Of a stretch of DNA of 64,000 bases, positions 45,604 to 64,000 are shown piece by piece. This stretch comes from an uncultured delta proteobacterium (GTDB lineage: Bacteria > Desulfobacterota > Desulfobacteria > Desulfobacterales > JAFDCJ01), in assembly GCA_963769935.1 (NCBI GenBank), contig CAVYNY010000014.1, forward strand, positions 84,392 through 148,391. The letters run 5' to 3'. Positions within the stretch are counted from its first letter, which is position 1. Every line of letters begins with the position of its first letter. Made by a program: the position numbers and the translations under genes. Below the pieces are notes generated by a model. That model worked only from the letters and a program-made list of their open reading frames with translations, was not told the DNA's origin and searched no databases.

Positions 45604-45670
45604 ATAACTTTGAGTAACCAAGCAACTTTTGGTTCACTTGACTACTTGTTTAATTTTGGCAGCCCGCAGT

Positions 45671-48600
45671 ATGGCCCCCAATGTTCTCAACAGCGTCGGC
45701 TTTCACCCGCTAATAAAAAGCTGGTTCAGGGATCGATTTACATCTGCCAGCCCACCCCAGCAAGCCGGCTGGCCGTCTATCGCCGCCGGCAATCACACGC
45801 TCATCCTGGCACCGACCGGTTCAGGCAAGACCCTGGCCGCGTTTTTGTGGTGTATCGACGAGTTATTGCGCCAATCTTTGAAAGCCGGGTCCCCGCAATT
45901 TGAGACAGGCTTGGGATGTATCCACACCCTGTACATTTCACCGCTGAAGGCCCTCAACAACGACATTTATCATAACCTGAAAGCACCTCTTAAGGAAATT
46001 CACCGGCTGGCCGCGGACGGCAACCTTGAACTGCCTCAAATCCGCGCCGCCGTGCGCACCGGTGATACACCTTCCCATGTGCGCCGGGCCATGCTGCGGC
46101 TGCCTCCGCACATCTTAATTACAACTCCGGAATCGCTCTACCTGCTGCTCGGCACTGAGCGCGGTCGGGAGCTGTTCCATGATTTAAAATATGTTATTGT
46201 CGATGAAATTCACGCCCTCAGCGGCAACAAACGCGGCGTCCATTTGAGTCTCTCACTGGAGCGTCTGATGACATTGTGCCGGACGGAACCGGTCCGCATC
46301 GGCCTTTCGGCCACCCAGAAACCGCTGGACCGAATTGCCGCCTTTCTCGGCGGGCAGCGCTTCAACGGTTCAAAAACCAAAGCCGTGCCGCGGCCGGTCC
46401 GCATAATTGATTGCGGGCAGCGCCAAGACATCGATCTCAAAGTGCTCACACCGGTTAAAACTTTCCGCGAACTGCCTGAATCCAGTATCTGGCAGCCGGT
46501 TTACCGGACTCTTTACGAGTTGATTCGGGCGCATAAAACCACCCTGGTCTTTGTCGGAATGCGGTCCCAAACCGAAAAAATTGCGCGGGCGTTGAATCAA
46601 TTACACCACCGGATCACGGGTGATTCGCAAACTGAACTTGCCCTGGCGCACCACGGCAGCATTTCGCGCGAAGCCCGCTATGACATTGAAGCCCGCCTGA
46701 AAGCGGGAAAAATTCCGGCAGTCATCGCAACCGCCTCCCTGGAGCTTGGCATCGATATCGGCAGCATCGATCTGGTCGTGCAGCTGGAGGCGCCGCGCAG
46801 TGTTTCCGGCGCGTTGCAGCGGGTCGGCCGCAGCGGGCATTTACTTTCAGCCACCCGCAAAGGCCGGATCATCGTGCTGTATCCGGCCGACCTGGATGAT
46901 GCGGTTGCCATTGTACGCTGTATGATTGCGGCCGATATCGAAGAAACCGGAATTCCGGAAAATGCCCTGGATGTCCTGGCCCAGCAAATCGTAGCGGAAG
47001 TGGCGGTTAAATCGTGGCATTATGAAGATTTATTGCAGTTGATCCGCCAAAGTTATTGCTACCGGGATTTACCCCGCTCGGCATTTAAATCTGTCGTGGA
47101 AATGCTGAGCGGCAAGTTCGCCGCTGTACCCTTGCAGGCCCTGAGTGCACGCTTGAACTGGGACCGGGTCAACAACCAATTGATCGCCCGGCGCGGCAGC
47201 CGACTGGCCGCCGTGCTGAACGGGGGCACCATTCCGGACCGCGGGTATTACGGGGTTTATCTGGAAAACGCCAATGTAAAACTGGGAGAAGTCGAGGAGG
47301 AATTTGCATTTGAATCCCGGGTGGGCGAAGTGTTTTTTCTCGGCAACAGCGAGTGGCTGATCAAACAGATCCAACAGGATCGCATCATCGTCAGCCCCAT
47401 GGCGGCCATCAATCCCCGGGCGCCTTTCTGGAAAGGCGGTGTCCTGCACCGCGGCTATTCAACCAGCCTTAAAATCGGGCAATTTCGACGGCAGCTGCTG
47501 CAGAAAATGGACCGTAACCAGGCCGAAACCTGGCTGTTACAGGAATGCGCAGCGGATGCGTACACCGCCTCCAATCTGGTCGATTACTTTGGACGCCAGC
47601 GCGCTAAAGGCCGGTTGATTGCAACGGACAAACAGGTGGTAGCCGAAGTCAGCGTCGACGCGGGCGGCCAACCCCTGCTCATCATCCATGCACCATTCGG
47701 CGCCCGGGTAAACGGTGCCTGGGCCATCGCCTTATCGACGGCCCTCGAATCCCATTATCACACCCAGTTTCAGTATTCTTTTGATGACGACGGCATCTTG
47801 ATTCGGCTGCCGGACACGACCGAACCGCCGCCCCTGGACCGGCTTTTTAAAATATCTGGGCCCGAGATTGAAGCGCATCTCATGGAGGCCTTGCCCCGCT
47901 CTCCTGTTTTTCAGGTCCATTTTCGCTACAATGCCGCGCGCGCTCTGATGTTGCCGCGCTCACACCCCGGCCGGCGGGTCCCGCTGTGGCTGCAGCGGCT
48001 GCGGGCTTCCGATCTGCTGCAAGCCGTCAGCAGCTATCGGGAATTTCCGGTTGTTGTCGAAACCTACCGCGAATGTCTGCAGGATGTGTTTGACCTGGCC
48101 GCTTTGAAAATAATTGTCGGCCGCATAATCCGGGGACAAATCCGCGTTGATGTGGTCAATACTCCGGCTCCCTCGCCCATGGCCGCCGGCATTTTATTTA
48201 AATTTGTCTCCGTCTACCTCTACGAAGCGGATCAAAGCCGCCGCCCGCAGGCAGGCTTGAGCGTCAGCAGCGAAATATTGGAGCCGCTGCTGGACAGCAG
48301 CCGCCTGCCGGCCATTCTTACGCCCGAACTCGTCCTGCAGGCCGAAAGGCGCTGGCAGCACCTGGATCCCTATTTCCAGGCCGAAACCGCCGAAGATTTA
48401 TTCGGCATTATCGAAAAGCTGGGACCGATGGATGAAGAAAATCTGGCCCGCCGCTGCAAAGTTGATCCGGGGCCGCTGCTGCATGAATTAAAAAAGGCCG
48501 ATCGGATAGTCTCCGTCGACCGGCTGCCGCCCACCTCCCCCGGCCGCATTTGGCAGCTGAAAGAAATAGAAACGAAAAGCATCGGCGAGGACGACCGCAC

Positions 48601-50221
48601 CGGCAACCTGCAGGCAGTTCAGCGCTACCTGCAATCCCGCGGTCCGGTTGACAGCGATATGATTCAAGCCGATCTGGGACTGCCGCATGATTTAATAGCG
48701 GCGGTCCTGAACCGATTGCTGGCCGAAAAACAGGTAATTCGCGGCCGGCTGATTGAGGGCCTGGCTGAGACGCAATGGTGTGACCGGCATAATTTTGCCC
48801 GGCTGTACCGCATGGCGGTCGGCCGGCGCCGGATGGTTCAAAACCCGGCCGATCGCACTGTTTTTATGAGATTTTTACTGCAATGGCATCGCATTGCCGG
48901 ACCGGCGCCACCCCTGTTGGAAGTTATCGGACGGTATCGCGGCTATCGATTCCCATTTCATTTTTTTGAGCGTGAAGTTTTGCGCTCGCGCTATCGTGAG
49001 ACGCCAGCGGCGACCTATAAAGATCGCCTGGCCGAGTTGGAAGCCCGGATAGCAAACGGAGAGGTCATCGCCTGCGCGGGCCGCAGCGGGGATACGGGCC
49101 GTAGATATGTGGAGTTTCGCATGCGGGGCGAAGGCCGCATGTTTACTGCACCGGAAGCGCTTGGGGGACGTGCAGAAAATTTGGGCCCGCTCGGCAGAAC
49201 CGCCTTTGAATTCCTGCGGGAGAATGGAGCCAGTTACGGCATGGATCTGGAATCGGGCACCGGCCTGACTTATCCGCGGCTGCGGCACGCACTCCAGGAA
49301 CTGGTCGCAAATGGGCTGGCAAGTTGTGAAAACTATCCCTGTTTTTTGTCCATTTTTCAAGCGGCATTGAAACCGGAAAAAACCCATACCGATGGCCTCC
49401 AGCTTGCCGGCAGGGCACCGCATGGGTTCGCGAAAAGACGTTTCACCGGACCTTTAAAATCAGAAATCCGAAATAGGCTTCGGCAAAAAAATCAGTTTGA
49501 GGATGGCCGCTGGTTTTTGACAACTTCATTCGGGGCTCTGGGAAGGCCGGCCGATGCAAATCAACGGGTAGAATGGCAGGCCCGTTTGCTGCTCGAGCGC
49601 TATGGGATTCTCGTCAAAGAATGGTACCGCCGGGAACAGGGGCTGCTTCCCTGGTATCCGATCTTTCAAGTGCTGAAACGCCTGGAGTGGCAGGGAGAAA
49701 TCCGCCGGGGCTATTTTGTTGCCGGGCTCTCCGGGGTGCAATTTGCGCTGCCGGCCGCCGTCGAATTGCTGGCCGAGATAAACAGTGATCCCTCGGCCGG
49801 CGACGAAAGACCGGTCCTGCTCAGCAGCCTGGATCCGGCGCTGCCTTTCGGCGCAGGTATTGATTGGAATCGCGGCGATCGGCCGGGCAAGCCCTTGAAA
49901 ATAGTTCGGTCGGCCGCCAATCATTTGGTCCTGGGAAACGGTCGGATCGTCATGGTTTGCGAAAACTTTTTCCAACGCCTTACGGTTTTTAGCGAACTGT
50001 CATCCCAAAATTGGCAATTGGTGGCAGCCATGTTCTCGGAATACTTGAAAATGCCGCCCCCCGTCAAACCTGTCAACCGGATTGAAATTCATGAAATCAA
50101 CAGCCTTCCCGCGGCCGCAAGCCCGCTCTCGGAACAGTTGCTGGAATTCGGTTTTGAAAAAGACGGCAATACTCTGATATTGTGGCCGTCTGCGGCGGAA
50201 AGCATAGCGCATAGCGCATAG
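45671..50221 (+). CDS. lhr: Lhr-family SF2 helicase, long form
   Basis: APTGSGKT, YISPLKAL, DEIH, SAT, HHGS, ATASLELGID, QRVGRSGH, GGTIPDRG; C-terminal EIRRGYFVAGLSGVQFA. Confidence 0.92.
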   Translation: MAPNVLNSVGFHPLIKSWFRDRFTSASPPQQAGWPSIAAGNHTLILAPTGSGKTLAAFLWCIDELLRQSLKAGSPQFETGLGCIHTLYISPLKALNNDIYHNLKAPLKEIHRLAADGNLELPQIRAAVRTGDTPSHVRRAMLRLPPHILITTPESLYLLLGTERGRELFHDLKYVIVDEIHALSGNKRGVHLSLSLERLMTLCRTEPVRIGLSATQKPLDRIAAFLGGQRFNGSKTKAVPRPVRIIDCGQRQDIDLKVLTPVKTFRELPESSIWQPVYRTLYELIRAHKTTLVFVGMRSQTEKIARALNQLHHRITGDSQTELALAHHGSISREARYDIEARLKAGKIPAVIATASLELGIDIGSIDLVVQLEAPRSVSGALQRVGRSGHLLSATRKGRIIVLYPADLDDAVAIVRCMIAADIEETGIPENALDVLAQQIVAEVAVKSWHYEDLLQLIRQSYCYRDLPRSAFKSVVEMLSGKFAAVPLQALSARLNWDRVNNQLIARRGSRLAAVLNGGTIPDRGYYGVYLENANVKLGEVEEEFAFESRVGEVFFLGNSEWLIKQIQQDRIIVSPMAAINPRAPFWKGGVLHRGYSTSLKIGQFRRQLLQKMDRNQAETWLLQECAADAYTASNLVDYFGRQRAKGRLIATDKQVVAEVSVDAGGQPLLIIHAPFGARVNGAWAIALSTALESHYHTQFQYSFDDDGILIRLPDTTEPPPLDRLFKISGPEIEAHLMEALPRSPVFQVHFRYNAARALMLPRSHPGRRVPLWLQRLRASDLLQAVSSYREFPVVVETYRECLQDVFDLAALKIIVGRIIRGQIRVDVVNTPAPSPMAAGILFKFVSVYLYEADQSRRPQAGLSVSSEILEPLLDSSRLPAILTPELVLQAERRWQHLDPYFQAETAEDLFGIIEKLGPMDEENLARRCKVDPGPLLHELKKADRIVSVDRLPPTSPGRIWQLKEIETKSIGEDDRTGNLQAVQRYLQSRGPVDSDMIQADLGLPHDLIAAVLNRLLAEKQVIRGRLIEGLAETQWCDRHNFARLYRMAVGRRRMVQNPADRTVFMRFLLQWHRIAGPAPPLLEVIGRYRGYRFPFHFFEREVLRSRYRETPAATYKDRLAELEARIANGEVIACAGRSGDTGRRYVEFRMRGEGRMFTAPEALGGRAENLGPLGRTAFEFLRENGASYGMDLESGTGLTYPRLRHALQELVANGLASCENYPCFLSIFQAALKPEKTHTDGLQLAGRAPHGFAKRRFTGPLKSEIRNRLRQKNQFEDGRWFLTTSFGALGRPADANQRVEWQARLLLERYGILVKEWYRREQGLLPWYPIFQVLKRLEWQGEIRRGYFVAGLSGVQFALPAAVELLAEINSDPSAGDERPVLLSSLDPALPFGAGIDWNRGDRPGKPLKIVRSAANHLVLGNGRIVMVCENFFQRLTVFSELSSQNWQLVAAMFSEYLKMPPPVKPVNRIEIHEINSLPAAASPLSEQLLEFGFEKDGNTLILWPSAAESIAHSA

Positions 50222-51717: not shown

Positions 51718-52971
51718 TCATTGTACCAGAGCGTCTGCAACCATGGAACTCAGGAATTTAACCTCAACACCCATTTTGTAATGATCATTTAAATTGCTGA
51801 GTTGGGTGTGACAGTTTTCGCAGGCGGTTGCCAGGGTCGCGGCGCCGGAGGCCTTGACCTGGTCCACCTTGACCCGGGACGACTTCATCCGAAAATCCAA
51901 GGTTTCATCACCCAGGGCCACCAGGCCGCCGCCGCCGCCGCAACACCAGTTGTATTTGGGATCCGGCGTCATTTCCCGGAATTCGTCCGTCAGGTGCTGC
52001 AGAATATAGCGCGGTTCGTCAATTACGCCGCCGTTTCTGGCAATCTGGCAGGGATCGTGGTAGGTGATCGGCCCGTGCAGTTTCGTCTTGTCCAGCTTGA
52101 TGCGGCCTTCGCGCAGGTAGCGGGCGTGCACCTCGGTAATGGAAACCACGTTGAAAGGCTGTTTGCCGGAAAGCTGCTTCATCACCCGGTACGCCGTGCC
52201 GCACTCACAAATGCAGACTTCTTTAACCTTCAACCGAATGGCCTCATTGACAATGCGATTTAAAATCAGCTTGGTTTTGGTAGGATCGCCGACGAAGGCC
52301 CCAAAATTGACGGCCTCAAAAAAGCTCAATGTCCAGTTTTCTCCGGCGGCATTGAAAATGGCGGCTGCCGGGATAATGGAATGGGCGCCGGCCAGGGCCA
52401 CATAAAGCAGATCGGCGCCTTCCACATCCACCGGTATGGCACTCTTGCCGGCCTCCAGCTGCCACTTTTCAACCACTTCTTTTTCAAGCCGTTTGACACC
52501 GTCCAGGAAGCCTTCCTTGAAAAGGTCCAGCGATTTACCTTTTTCAACGGAAGTGTCCGCCAGCATGGTCAGGATTTCCGGTTCGGCATGGGCGCCGATG
52601 AGCAGCAACTTGGCGATCGACATAATCATCTGGGTGTCGATACCGAACGGGCAATAAACCATGCAGCGCCGGCATCCGGTGCACGAATAGGCCGCCTCGA
52701 ACAGCTCTTCGACGGCCATCTCGGTCAATTCTTTGGCTTCGCCCAGCGAGGGCCAGAATTTTCCGCGGGCCTTGAAATATTTCTTGTAAAGCCGGCGAAC
52801 GATCTCAGCCCGATAGGCAGCGATGTATTTCACCTGCCCCATGGAGGCATACACATGGCAGGCCTCGATACATACGCCACAGCGTGTGCAGGTTTCCAGG
52901 TAAAGCCGCATCGCTTCATTAAGCTTGCTCTGAAAAAGTTTGAGCAAATCATCTCTTGTTTTCTGATCCAT
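51718..52971 (-). CDS. CCG-domain Fe-S oxidoreductase (DsrK/TmcB/HmcF/HdrD-like)
   Basis: CTRCGVCIEAC, CTGCRRCMVYCPFGID, ECG, YHDPC, CCGGGGG and ACENC. Confidence 0.9.
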   Translation of the reverse strand: MDQKTRDDLLKLFQSKLNEAMRLYLETCTRCGVCIEACHVYASMGQVKYIAAYRAEIVRRLYKKYFKARGKFWPSLGEAKELTEMAVEELFEAAYSCTGCRRCMVYCPFGIDTQMIMSIAKLLLIGAHAEPEILTMLADTSVEKGKSLDLFKEGFLDGVKRLEKEVVEKWQLEAGKSAIPVDVEGADLLYVALAGAHSIIPAAAIFNAAGENWTLSFFEAVNFGAFVGDPTKTKLILNRIVNEAIRLKVKEVCICECGTAYRVMKQLSGKQPFNVVSITEVHARYLREGRIKLDKTKLHGPITYHDPCQIARNGGVIDEPRYILQHLTDEFREMTPDPKYNWCCGGGGGLVALGDETLDFRMKSSRVKVDQVKASGAATLATACENCHTQLSNLNDHYKMGVEVKFLSSMVADALVQ

Positions 52972-52984
52972 AACTTTGTCCTTA

Positions 52985-53695
52985 TTACCCCCTTCGCAGC
53001 TTATTCATCGGCAGTGAAAGAAAAGAGTGCATGCTCTGGCTGAAAGGAAAAAATATTAAGAACAGGTTGGCAAAAAATATGTGCAGCACCAGCATGAAGG
53101 AATGCCCGGCGTCTGTTACCGCATCCGGCAGATAGGGCTGCAGGACCAGCAGGCTCATAAGGTAGTCCCGATAATCTTCCACCGTTATACCCTCGTAACC
53201 GTACCATCTTCTGGCCCAATCCATCTCACTGCCGAAGATGACGATCAGAAATAATAAAACCAGCAGATAATAGTCTTCCGGTACCGACAGTTCTCTGACC
53301 GGAGATAGAAACCGTCGAAACAGAAAATAAAGCAACGCAACGGCGCCGAAAAGTCCGACGAACCCTTGCCCCAGAAAGACTTCATGGGGAATAATTTGAA
53401 AAATCGCAAACTGATCGAACAACTCCAGATGCCCGATTATCAAAAGCAAGAGACAGATGTGAAAAAGCATCAGGAAAACCCAAAGTACGGGTTTGTGCCG
53501 TCTCACGCTCGGAAACAAAAAGGTGTCGTGAAGGGCCCACAGCCAGCGGGGGTTTTTCTCAGGATAAATTTGTAAGGTGGTGGGATGTTCAGGTGTCCGG
53601 AATATCTTGATCAACCTTATGGTGGTGCCGATGAAAAAAGTCGCCAACGCCATATAGACCATCGGCACCAGAATGAAATAAACCAGTGTTGGCAC
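52985..53695 (-). CDS. NarI-family membrane cytochrome b (DsrM/TmcC/HmcE-like)
   Basis: GTG start after GGAGG; heme-type His residues in LFH...IGH and VLH...FPFSQSMH; FRR...SVPEDY. Confidence 0.85.
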   Translation of the reverse strand: MPTLVYFILVPMVYMALATFFIGTTIRLIKIFRTPEHPTTLQIYPEKNPRWLWALHDTFLFPSVRRHKPVLWVFLMLFHICLLLLIIGHLELFDQFAIFQIIPHEVFLGQGFVGLFGAVALLYFLFRRFLSPVRELSVPEDYYLLVLLFLIVIFGSEMDWARRWYGYEGITVEDYRDYLMSLLVLQPYLPDAVTDAGHSFMLVLHIFFANLFLIFFPFSQSMHSFLSLPMNKLRRG

Positions 53696-53713
53696 AGTCG
53701 CCTCCCGAAATTT

Positions 53714-53850
53714 GCGCGCAGAGAGCACGGAGCAGAGAGCATAGAGCAAAGGGCATAGCGTCGAACAAAAAGCTATTCAACCAGGTGTTAAAATCACAAG
53801 ACGTTCAATTCATGCGCTAGGCTCTATGCGCCCTGCCCCAGGCCCCATGC
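53714..53850. repeat. Inverted heptamer-repeat element inside the sulfur operon
   Basis: gcagagagcacggagcagagagcatagagcaaagggcatagcg ... catgcgctaggctctatgcgccctgc. Confidence 0.65.
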
Positions 53851-53858
53851 TTTTTGCT

Positions 53859-54101
53859 TTATACCAATCGTTTAATATAAAATCTGATCAGCTTGTCCTC
53901 CTGGTCGGTTTTCACGATTTCGTTGCCGCTGGTTTTGGCCCAGGCAGGAAAATCGGTTAAGGCACCGGGGTCGGTTGTCTGCGCTTCTATGACCTGGCCG
54001 ACTTGAACTTCTTTGATTCCTTTGCTGACTTTGACAATCGGCATGGGACATGCCAGGCCCTTTAAGTCAAATACTTTTGCTACTTGGATTTCGTCACTCA
54101 T
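53859..54101 (-). CDS. tusA: Sulfur carrier TusA
   Basis: DLKGLACPMP and TDPG...DFPAWA...GN. Confidence 0.9.
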   Translation of the reverse strand: MSDEIQVAKVFDLKGLACPMPIVKVSKGIKEVQVGQVIEAQTTDPGALTDFPAWAKTSGNEIVKTDQEDKLIRFYIKRLV

Positions 54102-54129
54102 TTGATTTCTCCTGAAATTAACGTTTACA

Positions 54130-54682
54130 TTAAATAAAAAGCTGAACTTTGGCGTTTTGGGCTTCGGCCAGAAAGGTTGCTACACCGCCGAAACCCAGGT
54201 CTTTATAGTCAATAAATTCCTCGCGGCTGAAGCCCATCAGGTCCATGGACATCTCACACACGTAAATCCTGACGCCCAACTCTTCGGCCAGGGACACCAT
54301 CTCTTCCAGGGAGGCCACATTTTTCTTCTTCATCAGGGATTTCATCATGGCCGTTCCCATTCCGCCCATATTCATATTGGAAAGTTTCACATCACCGGTG
54401 CCCTTCGGCAGCATGGCACCGAACATCTTGCCCATCATGTCTTTGCCGCCAACCTTTTTTTTCTTGTCTCTGAGGACCGAGGTACCCCAGAATGTAAAAA
54501 ACATTACGACTTCCATTCCCATTGCGACAGCTCCGGTAGCGATAACGAAGGCGGCCAAGCACCTTGTCCAGATCACCACTGAAGACCACCATTGCCAATT
54601 TGTTTTCCGCAGTTTTTTTGCTGACGGCCTCAACTTGAGCTTTGAGTTCCTCAAGCTGGGTTTCAATATTTTGCATATCCAT
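54130..54682 (-). pseudogene. DsrE2/DrsE-family sulfurtransferase with a +1 frameshift near 54557 (pseudogene or sequence error)
   Basis: VVFSGDLDKVL in one frame continues as AAFVIATGAVAMG...FFTFWG...YVCEMSMDLMG in the next; junction GTG CTT G GCC GCC. Confidence 0.85.
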
Positions 54683-54861
54683 GCCGTGCCTCCCTTGACT
54701 ATATTGTTAACATTATTTATTTCATGATTAAGGTAACTTGCAAAAAATATCCCGATAATTAGTCCTCGCCATGAACCTTTATTGCAAAAAATTTTATTTT
54801 TTCGCCCCGCCTGGTGTTGAGCCGGCCAAAAATTAAAACAGTCAGGTATCCTGGCTGTGAT

Positions 54862-55341
54862 TCACACCATCAATTCCTTGACAGCCTCCATGGACGCTTT
54901 GAGAATATCCAGATTTGTCAGTACCGATTGACGCTGATCCGGCGCCATCTGAGATAGTACCCGGCCATGGATATCATTTAAAAACTGATTGATTTCATTT
55001 AATTTTATTTGTCCGTCCGGGGTAAGGCTGAGCAAACTGATGCGTGAATCTTCGGGATCCTTGATTCTTTGGATCAACTTCTTGCTGATTAATCCCTCGA
55101 TAATTTTGGATACCCGACTTTTGACCACATTCATCTTGTGGGCAATGCTTTTGGCCGTCAGATAGCGCTCTTCACCGAACAATGTCAGACAGCGCAGCTC
55201 CGCGTCCGGCAGATTGAATCGTTCGCATTGGTACTGCATGCGCTCCTGGCAGCATTGAAACAGTTTCGCAATAGTTTCCTGAAATTTTTCCACTTGATAT
55301 TGCGAAATATCGGGGCCGCTGTTTTCCCTAAATTCGTTCAT
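54862..55341 (-). CDS. MarR-family transcriptional regulator
   Basis: wHTH SIAHKMNVVKSRVSKIIEGLISKKLIQR...DPEDSR...LTPDG. Confidence 0.9.
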   Translation of the reverse strand: MNEFRENSGPDISQYQVEKFQETIAKLFQCCQERMQYQCERFNLPDAELRCLTLFGEERYLTAKSIAHKMNVVKSRVSKIIEGLISKKLIQRIKDPEDSRISLLSLTPDGQIKLNEINQFLNDIHGRVLSQMAPDQRQSVLTNLDILKASMEAVKELMV

Positions 55342-55376
55342 ACCGTGAACTATAACACGGGTAGTCTATTTGTCAA
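55342..55376 (-). promoter_or_regulatory. Sigma70 promoter of marR with overlapping palindrome (probably leaderless)
   Basis: Minus strand TTGACA-16 nt-TATAGT-7 nt-ATG; inverted repeat CCGTG(55343)...CACGG(55360) spans the -10. Confidence 0.65.
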
Positions 55377-61978: not shown

Positions 61979-64000
61979 TCCGGGTAGAGACAGAAGGTTG
62001 CCCTTCTGTCCCCCCCACAGACCCGTACGAGCGCGATTAACGCATACGGTTCCTCGAAGCATGGTTTCGCTACGCGTATCGGTGTACAATCCTTGGTTCC
62101 GGCAACGGGTAACGCTCCAGCAGACGGTTGAAGCGATCCCACGGCATGTGTTTTCCCCGTGATCTCCGGTTCAGCCACTTCCGCCACGACCGCTTGACCT
62201 GCAGGCAATAGCCTCTCAGGCTGCGGATGTTGCCTGTGATTCCGTAGTACCCGTAATGCCCGCGAAGCTTCAGACACAGCATCACCCACTGCTCCGCAAC
62301 CGGCATGTGACGGTTGACCTTGCACCACAGATACATCCGCTTTACTGCCTTCCTCAGCTTCTTGCCCGACGTCTTGCGCTTCACCACCCGATTGCCCTTC
62401 CGCGACTTGCCCCAGTAGTGGGTAAAGCCCAGAAAGTCAAAAACCTGCGGCTTTTGTCCCTTGCCTCCAGCTCGGCTGAAGTCCAGCAGCCGACTTTTGG
62501 CCTCCTGGATCGCAAGCCCATAACGCCCAAATCGCCCGGGAAGCTTCCCCCAGACTCTTTGGGCATCGCTGCGCTGCTCGAACACGATGACAAAGTCGTC
62601 GGCAAATCGGATCAACTCCGCCCTGCCGCCAAGTCGGGGCTGCACTTCATGCTCAAACCAGCTGTCCAGCACTTCGTGCAGATAGATGTTGGCCAGCAGC
62701 GGCGAAATCACTCCCCCTTGGGGCGTTCCCCGCCGCGGATAGTGCATCTGACCATCTTCCATTACCCCGGCTTTAAGCCACTTGCCCACCATCCGATTGA
62801 TCACACCGTCCCGCACCCGCTTGCTTACAAATCCCCGCACGTGCTCATGGCTCACCGTGTCGAAGTAGCTCTTGATGTCTACTTCCAACACCCAACACTG
62901 TGTCCCCATGCGCATGACCGCTCGCCAAAGCCTATCCAAGGCCTGGTGACCGCTGCGACCCGCCCGAAAGCCATACGAACAATCTAAAAAGTCCTGCTCG
63001 TATATCGGCGTCAACAGCATCACCACCGCTCGCTGAAGCACTTTGTCTTCCAACGTCGGTATGCCTATCGGTCGCTCGGCTTTACCCTCGGCTTCCTTTG
63101 GTATATATACCCGACGCACTGCCGGCGCACGGTAATTGCCCGACTTGAACCGCTCCAACAATGATGCCAGATTGGTCTCCAAATCCTGCTCATACTCGGC
63201 GGCCGTTACTTCATCCACGCCCGCCGCTCCATCCTTCCGCGTGCGCCGGTATGCCTCCCGAAGCCAGTCCATGTCCACATGGTACGACAGCGTTGTGAGC
63301 ACCGCCTGCGGCATCTGCTCCGCAAGTTGCGCTATCCGTTGCTGTTTCGTGTACACACTCACAGATCCCAACGTATCCTCCGTGTTGCCCACCAACGGCT
63401 CCATGCCCCGGCACGGCCCTTTCCTCGGCCGGCTCTCCCCGGGTCGGATTCACCGGCTTCCTCGGTACTATGACCGTGCTAAGACTCCCTGCCGTCATCC
63501 CCATGGGCTTCGTCGCCTCCGCCCACCGGTACCATTGCCCCTGCTCTTTTGCCTTCGTTTCTCCCGACAAGCCCTTGCAGGTTCGGTTCTTGCCGGACCC
63601 GGTGTTCTCGGCCTTTCCCCCGACGGCTCACCTTACCGGAATTCCTTGGCAATGGAACGGCGAGGGCCTCCCAGGTTCCTGGGGAGTCCTCTCGTGCCTT
63701 TGCCCCGCTCAAAAGACCCCGGCCGCGCCTCCCCGTCTCGCCACTAACGACAGTCAGGTGTTGCCCCCGCCAGGAAAACCACGAAGGCCGCAGCTACTTT
63801 GGTTATTTCGAGGCTGTTTCACGCGGCTTCAGCACTCGCTGTCTACGCTTCCAGATTCGGCTTTCCCTACACTGGCAAGACTCGCTCCCGGTGGGTGGCT
63901 AACCCTTGCCGGACGGGATTCGAACCCGCTGGACTCCTACGGCGTATTTCAAGAAGACCTACCGCCCCCTATCCCAACGCCCCAGGCTTAGCCTGGCGCG
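61979..64000 (-). mobile_element. Group II intron (probably bacterial class E type); 5' end at or just beyond the window edge
   Basis: After the RT ORF: DV gaaccgtatgcgttaatcgcgctcgtacgggtc, then DVI gacagaagg-gcaa-ccttctgtc and end ctacccgga. The minus strand begins cgcgccagg at 64000, resembling a GYGCG 5' end missing its first base. Confidence 0.9.
62070..63404 (-). CDS. ltrA: Group II intron reverse transcriptase/maturase without En domain
   Basis: GAAGVD, RPIGIPTLEDKVLQ, SYGFR, GTPQGGVISPLLANIYLH, RFADD, FDFLGF and X-domain LRGHYGYY; no HNH. Confidence 0.95.
   Translation of the reverse strand: MEPLVGNTEDTLGSVSVYTKQQRIAQLAEQMPQAVLTTLSYHVDMDWLREAYRRTRKDGAAGVDEVTAAEYEQDLETNLASLLERFKSGNYRAPAVRRVYIPKEAEGKAERPIGIPTLEDKVLQRAVVMLLTPIYEQDFLDCSYGFRAGRSGHQALDRLWRAVMRMGTQCWVLEVDIKSYFDTVSHEHVRGFVSKRVRDGVINRMVGKWLKAGVMEDGQMHYPRRGTPQGGVISPLLANIYLHEVLDSWFEHEVQPRLGGRAELIRFADDFVIVFEQRSDAQRVWGKLPGRFGRYGLAIQEAKSRLLDFSRAGGKGQKPQVFDFLGFTHYWGKSRKGNRVVKRKTSGKKLRKAVKRMYLWCKVNRHMPVAEQWVMLCLKLRGHYGYYGITGNIRSLRGYCLQVKRSWRKWLNRRSRGKHMPWDRFNRLLERYPLPEPRIVHRYA

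Follow-up and report, generated by a model that had tools for sequence, protein, structure and literature searches.

How anaerobic bacteria exchange electrons between their membranes and elemental sulfur or polysulfide remains an open question, and it is posed in concrete form by a five-gene operon of an uncultured delta proteobacterium (GTDB lineage Desulfobacterota; Desulfobacteria; Desulfobacterales; JAFDCJ01). The window analysed here is a stretch of 64,000 nucleotides, positions 84,392 to 148,391 of the forward strand of contig CAVYNY010000014.1 (assembly GCA_963769935.1); on its minus strand, at 51718..55376, lie in order marR, dsrE2, tusA and the genes for a NarI-like membrane cytochrome b (hereafter M) and an iron–sulfur protein of the CCG family (hereafter K). 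What would a repressor and two sulfur carriers do beside a module that resembles the DsrMK core of the sulfate reducers? Our best reading is that the operon encodes a self-repressed quinol:TusA-persulfide reductase. We give an even chance to the proposal that it is a conserved unit whose M–K pair is a DsrMK-like enzyme, using electrons from menaquinol to reduce the sulfane sulfur carried by TusA to sulfide.

Results

A sequence-only reading of this DNA had described five co-oriented genes, and open reading frames, strand and Pfam assignments (MarR, DrsE_2, TusA, Nitrate_red_gam, and Fer4 with CCG) bear this out. All on the minus strand, marR (54862..55341; 159 aa, PF01047) is followed after 179 bp by dsrE2 (54130..54682; a PF13686 sulfur carrier with one conserved Cys), after a further 28 bp by tusA (53859..54101), after 163 bp by the DsrM/NarI-like M gene (52985..53695; PF02665, with a GTG start and five hydrophobic segments) and after 13 bp by the K gene (51718..52971; 417 aa, PF02754, with two CxxCxxCxxxC motifs and one complete CCG motif). 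The 80-aa TusA is indeed a PF01206 protein with a CPMP motif (Cys18), and the cysteine motif quoted for MarR is present. The remark that no dsrJOP, tmc or hmc multihaem partner lies nearby holds for the window, where no multihaem c cytochrome was found among the open reading frames of at least 100 aa and the sole CxxCH is inside K, but not for the genome, which has canonical dsrMKJOP and tmcABCD operons on contigs other than this operon's. No terminator-like site was found 3' of K.

The arrangement is conserved. Scanning a single genome for each species, we confirmed 445 stretches that belong to the wider K family, and among the best 80 of these (at least 80% identity), wherever enough upstream DNA was present, M accompanies K in 74/74, tusA in 69/71, dsrE2 in 65/65 and marR in 57/58. 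These 80 loci are kin, not independent, and the named closest K orthologues are mostly from Desulfobacterales (88–91% identity). More telling is the synteny of a sister clade whose K proteins share 46–50% identity with this one and whose named members include Ca. Humimicrobiaceae, Chloroflexota, Dehalococcoidaceae and Elusimicrobia: its 26 metagenome loci have the order arsR-dsrE2-tusA-M-K, with M in 18/18, tusA in 15/15, dsrE2 in 10/10 and arsR in 9/9. ArsR takes the place of MarR there, as it does in the Desulfarculaceae locus L186. Closer to home, a K orthologue of at least 72% identity occurs in 16 of the 22 other genomes of the genus and in 3 of 18 genomes of other families in the order; in a phylum-wide sample of 250 genomes, 11 have matches of at least 54%. 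Where all four ORFs are whole, PF01206 and CPxP are found in 76/76 loci, and Cys18 of TusA is invariant (56/56 rows). One locus, L034, consists of tusA-M-K only, and L188 and L189 are M–K paralogues without either carrier alongside. In L105 the operon stands twice in tandem, by duplication or through an assembly artefact.

The link between TusA and K extends to a predicted complex. The K–TusA model scored 0.75 (0.77, 0.72 and 0.75 in separate runs) against 0.01 for the best control; of the pairs by which such scores are calibrated, 116 of the 157 solved ones and 2 of the 215 mismatched ones attain the mark used, a guide that is rough here, as own alignments were used. The runs share at least 94% of contacts, with a partner pLDDT of 86. 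The modelled interface comprises TusA residues 17–20, which include Cys18, and K residues 133–162, 193–199, 217–223, 352 and 354, the last two just past the CCG motif; this segment of K is sharply unlike that of DsrK. Searches by sequence and by fold found no solved structure of DsrK, TmcB or HmcF, so that recall of a similar complex by the model is unlikely. By this model TusA is predicted to dock on the CCG protein, its Cys18 lying at the contact surface. The tusA-less paralogues L188 and L189 have diverged more at the 32 interface positions than overall (identity 0.39 and 0.26 against 0.56 and 0.54), whereas two tusA-linked paralogues at a similar distance show no such excess (0.55 and 0.65 against 0.61 and 0.60), a comparison in which the tusA-less side is only two, related sequences.

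K itself belongs among the DsrK-type proteins, yet stands apart from each named member. Published work is cited here by PMC number and mostly from excerpts of the papers. DsrK, TmcB and HmcF have a single CCG motif and, within a T/GECGH motif, a conserved cysteine (Barbosa et al., PMC10861901), and K has two [4Fe-4S] motifs, one CCG motif and the corresponding cysteine. Its cysteines C257, C308, C343, C344, C384 and C387 are invariant in 56/56 rows, the motif around the extra cysteine C257 being CECGT in 49/49 Desulfobacterota rows and T/SECGH in the 7 sister-clade rows. The sequence-only reading had called the protein DsrK/HdrD-like; K has one CCG stretch (residues 302–391) instead of the two complete motifs of HdrD and HdrB. 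The best-scoring family model is still that of DsrK (NF045796), at 277.1 bits against a cut-off of 400 and 732 for the canonical DsrK of the same genome; TmcB follows with 232.8 (cut-off 735) and HmcF with 215.8 (cut-off 750). Nor is K always found in the company of DsrAB and DsrC by which DsrMK systems are told. The structure model is confident (pLDDT 86.9), and its fold matches EtfD, LutAB and HdrB; EtfD of Mycobacterium smegmatis (9ojn) is the best solved relative on both counts, sequence and fold, and by sequence EtfD is the only one. In M, the four histidines are invariant in 21/21 rows, TmcC included, as in proteins of DsrM/NarI type, and M is predicted to be a dihaem b cytochrome; its best family score is for TmcC (50.7 bits, cut-off 240), with DsrM at 42 bits (cut-off 300).

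In a maximum-likelihood tree (IQ-TREE, LG+G4; 48 rows chosen out of 117, rooted on TfrB-like proteins and without methanogen HdrD), the operon K proteins of both clades form one branch (support 95/84, or 100/99 when the M–K fusion P0125 is included) next to two other groups, one of DsrK (100/99) and one that is Tmc/Hmc-like (94/92), with no settled order among the three; FastTree on all 117 rows agrees. The dsrC-linked MK pairs L191 and L192 belong with the DsrK group, away from operon K. Under LG+G4, and with groups defined after a first tree had been seen, a topology joining K with nine over-cut-off DsrK rows is rejected (p-AU 0.038), but one joining K with TmcB/HmcF is not (p-AU 0.058), although the two are apart in the best tree. 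The phylogeny that the sequence-only reading had proposed thus gives K a branch of its own and separates it from DsrK, and leaves its separation from TmcB/HmcF less secure; the outcome that was to count against that reading, a CCG protein grouping with DsrK/TmcB in a cluster lacking conservation, is not what we find. By these comparisons the operon is one that would work like DsrMK, yet K falls outside DsrK, TmcB, HmcF and HdrD in the membership tests run. The Desulfacinum infernum orthologue (WP_073040186.1) had no match in the table of Neukirchen et al. 2023, who define a basal clade of stand-alone DsrMK; the first 400 characters per table cell were compared.

Several relatives of K deserve mention in their own right. 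P0125, the 661-aa M–K fusion, is basal to the operon clade. The CCG paralogue L022:8943-10172 (G000:C32:81951-83093) lies beside two HdrA/QmoAB-type genes and has an in-frame TGA at the catalytic ECGH cysteine; similar paralogues in many relatives have one TGA, likely marking a selenocysteine form of the family. DsrK-like proteins over the cut-off (524–541 bits) whose reading frames contain one or two TGA codons occur in G139:C53, G258:C112, G170:C24, G108:C12, G073:C73 and G200:C170, and may be selenocysteine-containing variants. The paralogues L196, L197, L198, P0141 and P0131 are 550–600 aa long with a C-terminal extension, which in P0131 looks DsrC-like by eye.

How closely is the operon tied to the canonical Dsr pathway? 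The source genome (G000; 7.99 Mb in 41 contigs) has dsrA, three dsrC-like genes, aprA and MenA. With these genes, dsrMKJOP and tmc elsewhere in the genome, and the three dsrC-like genes on contigs other than the operon's, the operon appears as an extra system of a sulfate reducer. Across 62 genomes carrying K, for 48 of which completeness is unstated, dsrA is present in 47 and was not found in 15. Of five dsrA-less carriers, none yielded a canonical DsrK (5/5) and three yielded no dsrC (3/5). In G300 (locus L072; recorded as a chromosome of 3,184,596 bases) and G327 (L106), all five operon genes are intact, while dsrA, dsrC, an over-cut-off dsrK and aprA were not found by models that do match in G000. 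Likewise, aprA was not found in six dsrA-lacking carriers, part of the searches being repeated with G000 as a positive control. The DsrK family search of genomes scored six candidates per genome and was not used for absence counts. A haem o synthase above its cut-off at G000:C35:59180-59929 hints that this sulfate reducer copes with oxygen.

The regulatory region suggests how the operon may be controlled. A near-consensus sigma-70-type promoter is predicted at 55349..55376 on the minus strand (TTGACA, 16-nt spacer, TATAGT; 11/12, with TG); as it ends 8 nt upstream of the marR start, a transcript with no leader, or almost none, is predicted. TTGAC lies 34–39 nt upstream of the marR start in 64/67 loci. 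A palindrome GTTCA-N5-TGAAC (55336..55350, minus strand), a candidate MarR operator, spans the edge of the -10 element and the marR start codon, and is exact in 28/64 loci and of the form GTTNA-N5-TGAAY in 47/64. Its right arm doubles as the first two codons (Met-Asn) and the left one meets the -10 element, so that this copy taken alone is under other constraints. A second, degenerate copy (54762..54776, minus strand, about 94 nt upstream of dsrE2) lies in the marR–dsrE2 gap, free of codon and -10 constraints; it has two mismatches in this genome, and at most one in 28 of the 67 intergenic regions, where shuffled sequences give 0.28. The MarR fold is confirmed by fold search, which matched generic MarR proteins only, and Cys30-Cys31, a candidate sensor, is invariant in 26/26 rows with identity down to 44%. 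That MarR represses its own operon is a sound inference from these features. Of five exact palindromes in the genome, only the marR copy stands beside a TTGAC; a wider MarR regulon is not evident, this number not exceeding those for other spacers (8, 8, 19 and 8). In one study, the contigs of four RNA runs from sediment cover each of the five genes, and in a relative a single contig of 2,095 bases reaches from K to dsrE2; we did not count these as co-transcription, since the contigs give no strand or level and flanking genes are covered too.

As deposited, dsrE2 is interrupted by an additional base at 54559-54560, a frameshift that the sequence-only reading had overlooked. The base is missing in near-identical contigs from 4/4 DNA runs (two studies, the best-matching run possibly being the source sample of this genome) and in contigs of more diverged relatives from 4/4 RNA runs (one study). 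We therefore read the frameshift as probably an assembly error, and judge a genuine pseudogene unlikely. The protein is a PF13686 member distinct from DsrE2 in the sense of Allochromatium vinosum: an intact relative scores 86.5 bits on NF047629 (cut-off 210), and it has one hydrophobic peak only, where that protein has two transmembrane helices (PMC12998232). It is nearer to 3pnx and to reductase-fusion domains. Most of 120 listed longer relatives are fusions of a CoA-disulfide-reductase-like (CoADR) flavoprotein with rhodanese, TusA and DsrE, to whose DsrE domains it is about 56% identical; 119 of the 120 have a TusA domain. A single MarR–DsrE2 fusion, P0391, was also seen. Elsewhere in the source genome, L024:7149-14129 (G000:C16) holds a second TusA-like gene, which has two domains, and also a small one of DsrE-like appearance without a family match, in a cluster that by eye resembles hdr/mvhD genes.

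The genes around the operon vary more. Among the 80 close loci, a rhodanese/metallo-beta-lactamase (MBL) gene lies 3' of the operon in 8 and sat in 8, and a FadL-like outer-membrane gene family (Pfam; single-linkage count) adjoins it in 27, with no match in this genome. In six of the 26 sister loci, all close kin, a full CoADR-rhodanese gene lies 3' of K. In L080, L082, L083, L091, L095, L104 and L105 the operon is followed by the rhodanese/MBL gene and then by sat, and in those viewed qmo-like genes converge from the other side. Two small conserved ORFs (95 and 101 aa) lie 3' of K in L045, L048, L055, L058 and L070; the L048 pair has no Pfam match, and by eye they look DsrE/F-like and could be DsrEFH type II. 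Farther off in the window are, on the plus strand, a 1530-aa Lhr-type helicase below family cut-offs (45629-50221) and, on the minus strand, a group II intron reverse transcriptase/maturase over its cut-off (62070-63404), in a G+C-rich stretch at the contig end.

Discussion

Our work outlines how two small sulfur carriers may be coupled to a membrane-bound iron–sulfur enzyme. We suggest that DsrE2 would collect sulfane sulfur from polysulfide, persulfides and perhaps thiosulfonate and pass it to TusA, which would dock on K with Cys18 in the interface. Following the biochemistry of these families, electrons would run from quinol through the haems b and the two [4Fe-4S] clusters to the non-cubane cluster, and the TusA persulfide would be cleaved to free TusA and sulfide. 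MarR would use GTTCA-N5-TGAAC to repress the promoter of its own gene as well as a further site upstream of dsrE2, and be released when its Cys-Cys pair is modified, and the system would serve to remove, perhaps to respire, reactive zero-valent sulfur independently of DsrC. The scheme builds on the single-Cys carriers, the four haem-ligand histidines, the two ferredoxin motifs, the one CCG motif and the extra cysteine, and on the precedent of DsrMKJOP, which reduces DsrC trisulfide with menadiol (PMC10861901). The direction of flow is suggested by the reductase-fusion relatives of DsrE2, by one such fusion, from Bacteroides fragilis, being directly repressed by the MarR protein BmoR (PMC6158253), and by the CoADR-rhodanese gene 3' of K, all of which point to reduction. 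The earlier proposal that TusA replaces DsrC gains from the intact operon in genomes where dsrA, dsrC and dsrK were not found and from the TusA–K model; the interpretation built around it is partly supported overall.

Several observations weigh against this reading. The alignments of K and TusA were drawn from the same loci in the same order, the controls of the complex model did not include DsrC or DsrE2, and in the sister clade the interface positions show no extra conservation (0.35–0.48 against 0.46–0.50 overall). The operons L048 and L054 (2/71) lack tusA, and no close tusA was found elsewhere in G002, a genome 85% complete. As to the tie with Dsr, dsrA accompanies K in most carriers, and K is broken by a stop or frameshift in two dsrA-less genomes rated 100% complete, G135 and G278, which could reflect decay after loss of Dsr. 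Neither menD nor mqnC was found in G000, G300, G327, G035 or G322, and the prenyltransferase matches of G300, G327 and G035 are under the MenA cut-offs, so that the quinone is a putative one in Dsr-free carriers. The sulfane sulfur of polysulfide, finally, lies near -260 mV. Menaquinol, at about -70 mV (PMC10861901), would thus be a weak donor for it.

These potentials favour flow in the opposite direction, in which M–K would oxidise sulfide or carrier-bound sulfur with menaquinone and load TusA and DsrE2, much like a cytoplasm-facing sulfide:quinone oxidoreductase, and so feed oxidation or disproportionation. TusA and DsrE proteins do feed oxidising systems (PMC11094781, PMC13293266), the rhodanese/MBL and sat genes 3' of some operons would fit oxidation, as would the FadL-like family alongside, and all the evidence for TusA–K pairing fits equally. 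We nevertheless consider oxidation improbable: the nearest long relatives of DsrE2 are flavoprotein reductase fusions, the failure to find aprA in six dsrA-lacking carriers leaves no known sink for oxidised sulfur there, and a thiol-pair repressor would suit persulfide removal better than production.

Reduction need not be aimed at sulfane sulfur. M–K could re-reduce carrier cysteines held as mixed disulfides, S-thiosulfonates or S-sulfonates, in a thiol/disulfide or oxidant-stress module that would be the membrane counterpart of the BmoR-controlled reductase. The CoADR-rhodanese-TusA-DsrE gene of B. fragilis protects against diamide (PMC6158253), TusA and DsrE3A can carry thiosulfonate (PMC4175335), and MarR cysteines respond to oxidants besides sulfane sulfur (PMC9918477). 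With neighbours that are repeatedly sulfane-sulfur genes (rhodaneses and further DsrE proteins) and single-Cys carriers of the kind that suit persulfide transfer, we hold this to be quite unlikely.

Equally to be weighed is an extra DsrMK copy acting on DsrC, with TusA and DsrE2 merely delivering sulfur to DsrC as in the rDsr relay. DsrK being the best family model for K, extra DsrMK copies without JOP being known (PMC10504309, PMC10861901) and TusA exchanging sulfur with DsrC in vitro (PMC13293266) all speak for it, as do the prevalence of dsrA among carriers, the broken K of two dsrA-less genomes and a dsrC-like gene about 1.3 kb downstream of the tusA-M-K unit in G035. We regard it, too, as quite unlikely, since K scores under the DsrK cut-off and branches apart from both canonical DsrK and the dsrC-linked L191 and L192, and the operon is intact in G300 and G327, where no dsrC was found. 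The dsrC-like genes of G000 lie on other contigs, and the interface segment of K is not that of DsrK.

TusA is also a general biosynthetic sulfur carrier, and the best solved relative of K is EtfD, but that TusA and DsrE2 merely donate sulfur to the clusters of K or to a sulfur-containing cofactor, with M–K an EtfD-like electron-transfer module serving another partner, is very improbable when the DsrK, TmcB and HmcF operons of the same genome have no tusA or dsrE alongside. K also keeps the extra cysteine tied to S–S chemistry (PMC10861901).

The operon is real and conserved and, it appears, unstudied, and its sequence suggests a means of dealing with reactive zero-valent sulfur that seems not to have been described. 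Full-text literature searches returned no paper that, by its listing, describes it; subscription journals and supplements may mention it. Pereira et al. 2011 reportedly survey DsrMK-like pairs and may mention this operon. A dsrE-tusA pair linked to a separate DsrMK-like module does not appear in the excerpts consulted of PMC10504309, PMC10861901, PMC8528874, PMC13490349, PMC13047784, PMC11094781, PMC13293266, PMC12998232, PMC9918477, PMC6158253, PMC8477390, PMC6129605 and PMC6378623, although in Desulfurella dsrE genes lie within a dsrABCMK operon.

A bolder reading, doubtful but in our view worth stating, is that the operon represents a third DsrK/TmcB/HmcF branch in which TusA has taken the place of DsrC: a Dsr-independent quinol:protein-persulfide oxidoreductase that would couple zero-valent sulfur to the respiratory chain in sediment anaerobes of several phyla, whether as a sulfur/polysulfide reductase that is still missing or as the first step of disproportionation. 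It would also be a candidate for the task of DsrMK-like modules in the time before DsrC. Recent comparative work gives no clear marker of sulfur disproportionation (PMC12998232, in the part consulted). If true, the non-cubane cluster family would gain a third kind of substrate, a single-Cys carrier, beside CoM-S-S-CoB and DsrC trisulfide. Cultured, named carriers exist (Desulfacinum infernum DSM 9756 and Desulfoferula mesophila), and a menadiol assay has been published. Since operon K is annotated as DsrK in some records, it can also mislead metagenome surveys of sulfate reduction.

Comparison with known systems

The closest known counterparts are the DsrMK core of DsrMKJOP, a menadiol:DsrC-trisulfide oxidoreductase (PMC10861901), and stand-alone DsrMK (PMC10504309), which share with M–K the dihaem-type cytochrome b, the two ferredoxin motifs, the single CCG motif and the extra cysteine. 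In contrast to DsrK, operon K is 417 instead of about 540 aa long, about 27–31% identical, below both NCBIfam cut-offs and on its own branch, with CECGT where DsrK has GECGH; and the M–K genes stand with dsrE2-tusA and a repressor instead of with dsrC, dsrAB or dsrJOP, and occur in genomes in which no dsrC was found. Both TmcBC and HmcEF resemble M–K as two-subunit modules of like lengths, but the unit here has no cytochrome c partner.

In its regulation and carriers, the operon is most reminiscent of the bmoR operon of B. fragilis (with the CoADR-rhodanese-TusA-DsrE fusion BF638R_0572; PMC6158253), which likewise has a self-repressing MarR, an inverted-repeat operator, and TusA and a PF13686 DsrE tied to a reductase. 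This likeness is one of domain description, the operon DsrE2 having been aligned to other fusion domains. Here, however, the carriers are separate genes, and the proposed electrons come from membrane quinol via haem and Fe-S instead of from NAD(P)H via flavin. The yrkD-J genes of Bacillus licheniformis and the cst operon of Staphylococcus aureus (PMC9918477) also place DsrE and TusA under a repressor that senses sulfane sulfur, a function for which the MarR here is a candidate; those systems use a CstR-type sensor and oxygen-dependent PDO/SQR, whereas this one has MarR or ArsR and an Fe-S membrane enzyme. Similarly, sHdr with TusA/DsrE (PMC11094781) and the YTD cluster with DsrEFH type II (PMC13293266, PMC12998232) set TusA and DsrE carriers beside a sulfur redox system, and Aquifex TusA contacts a CCG-family complex. 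In place of HdrA/B/C, LbpA, YeeE and DsrF/H, the operon described here has one membrane-bound M–K pair.

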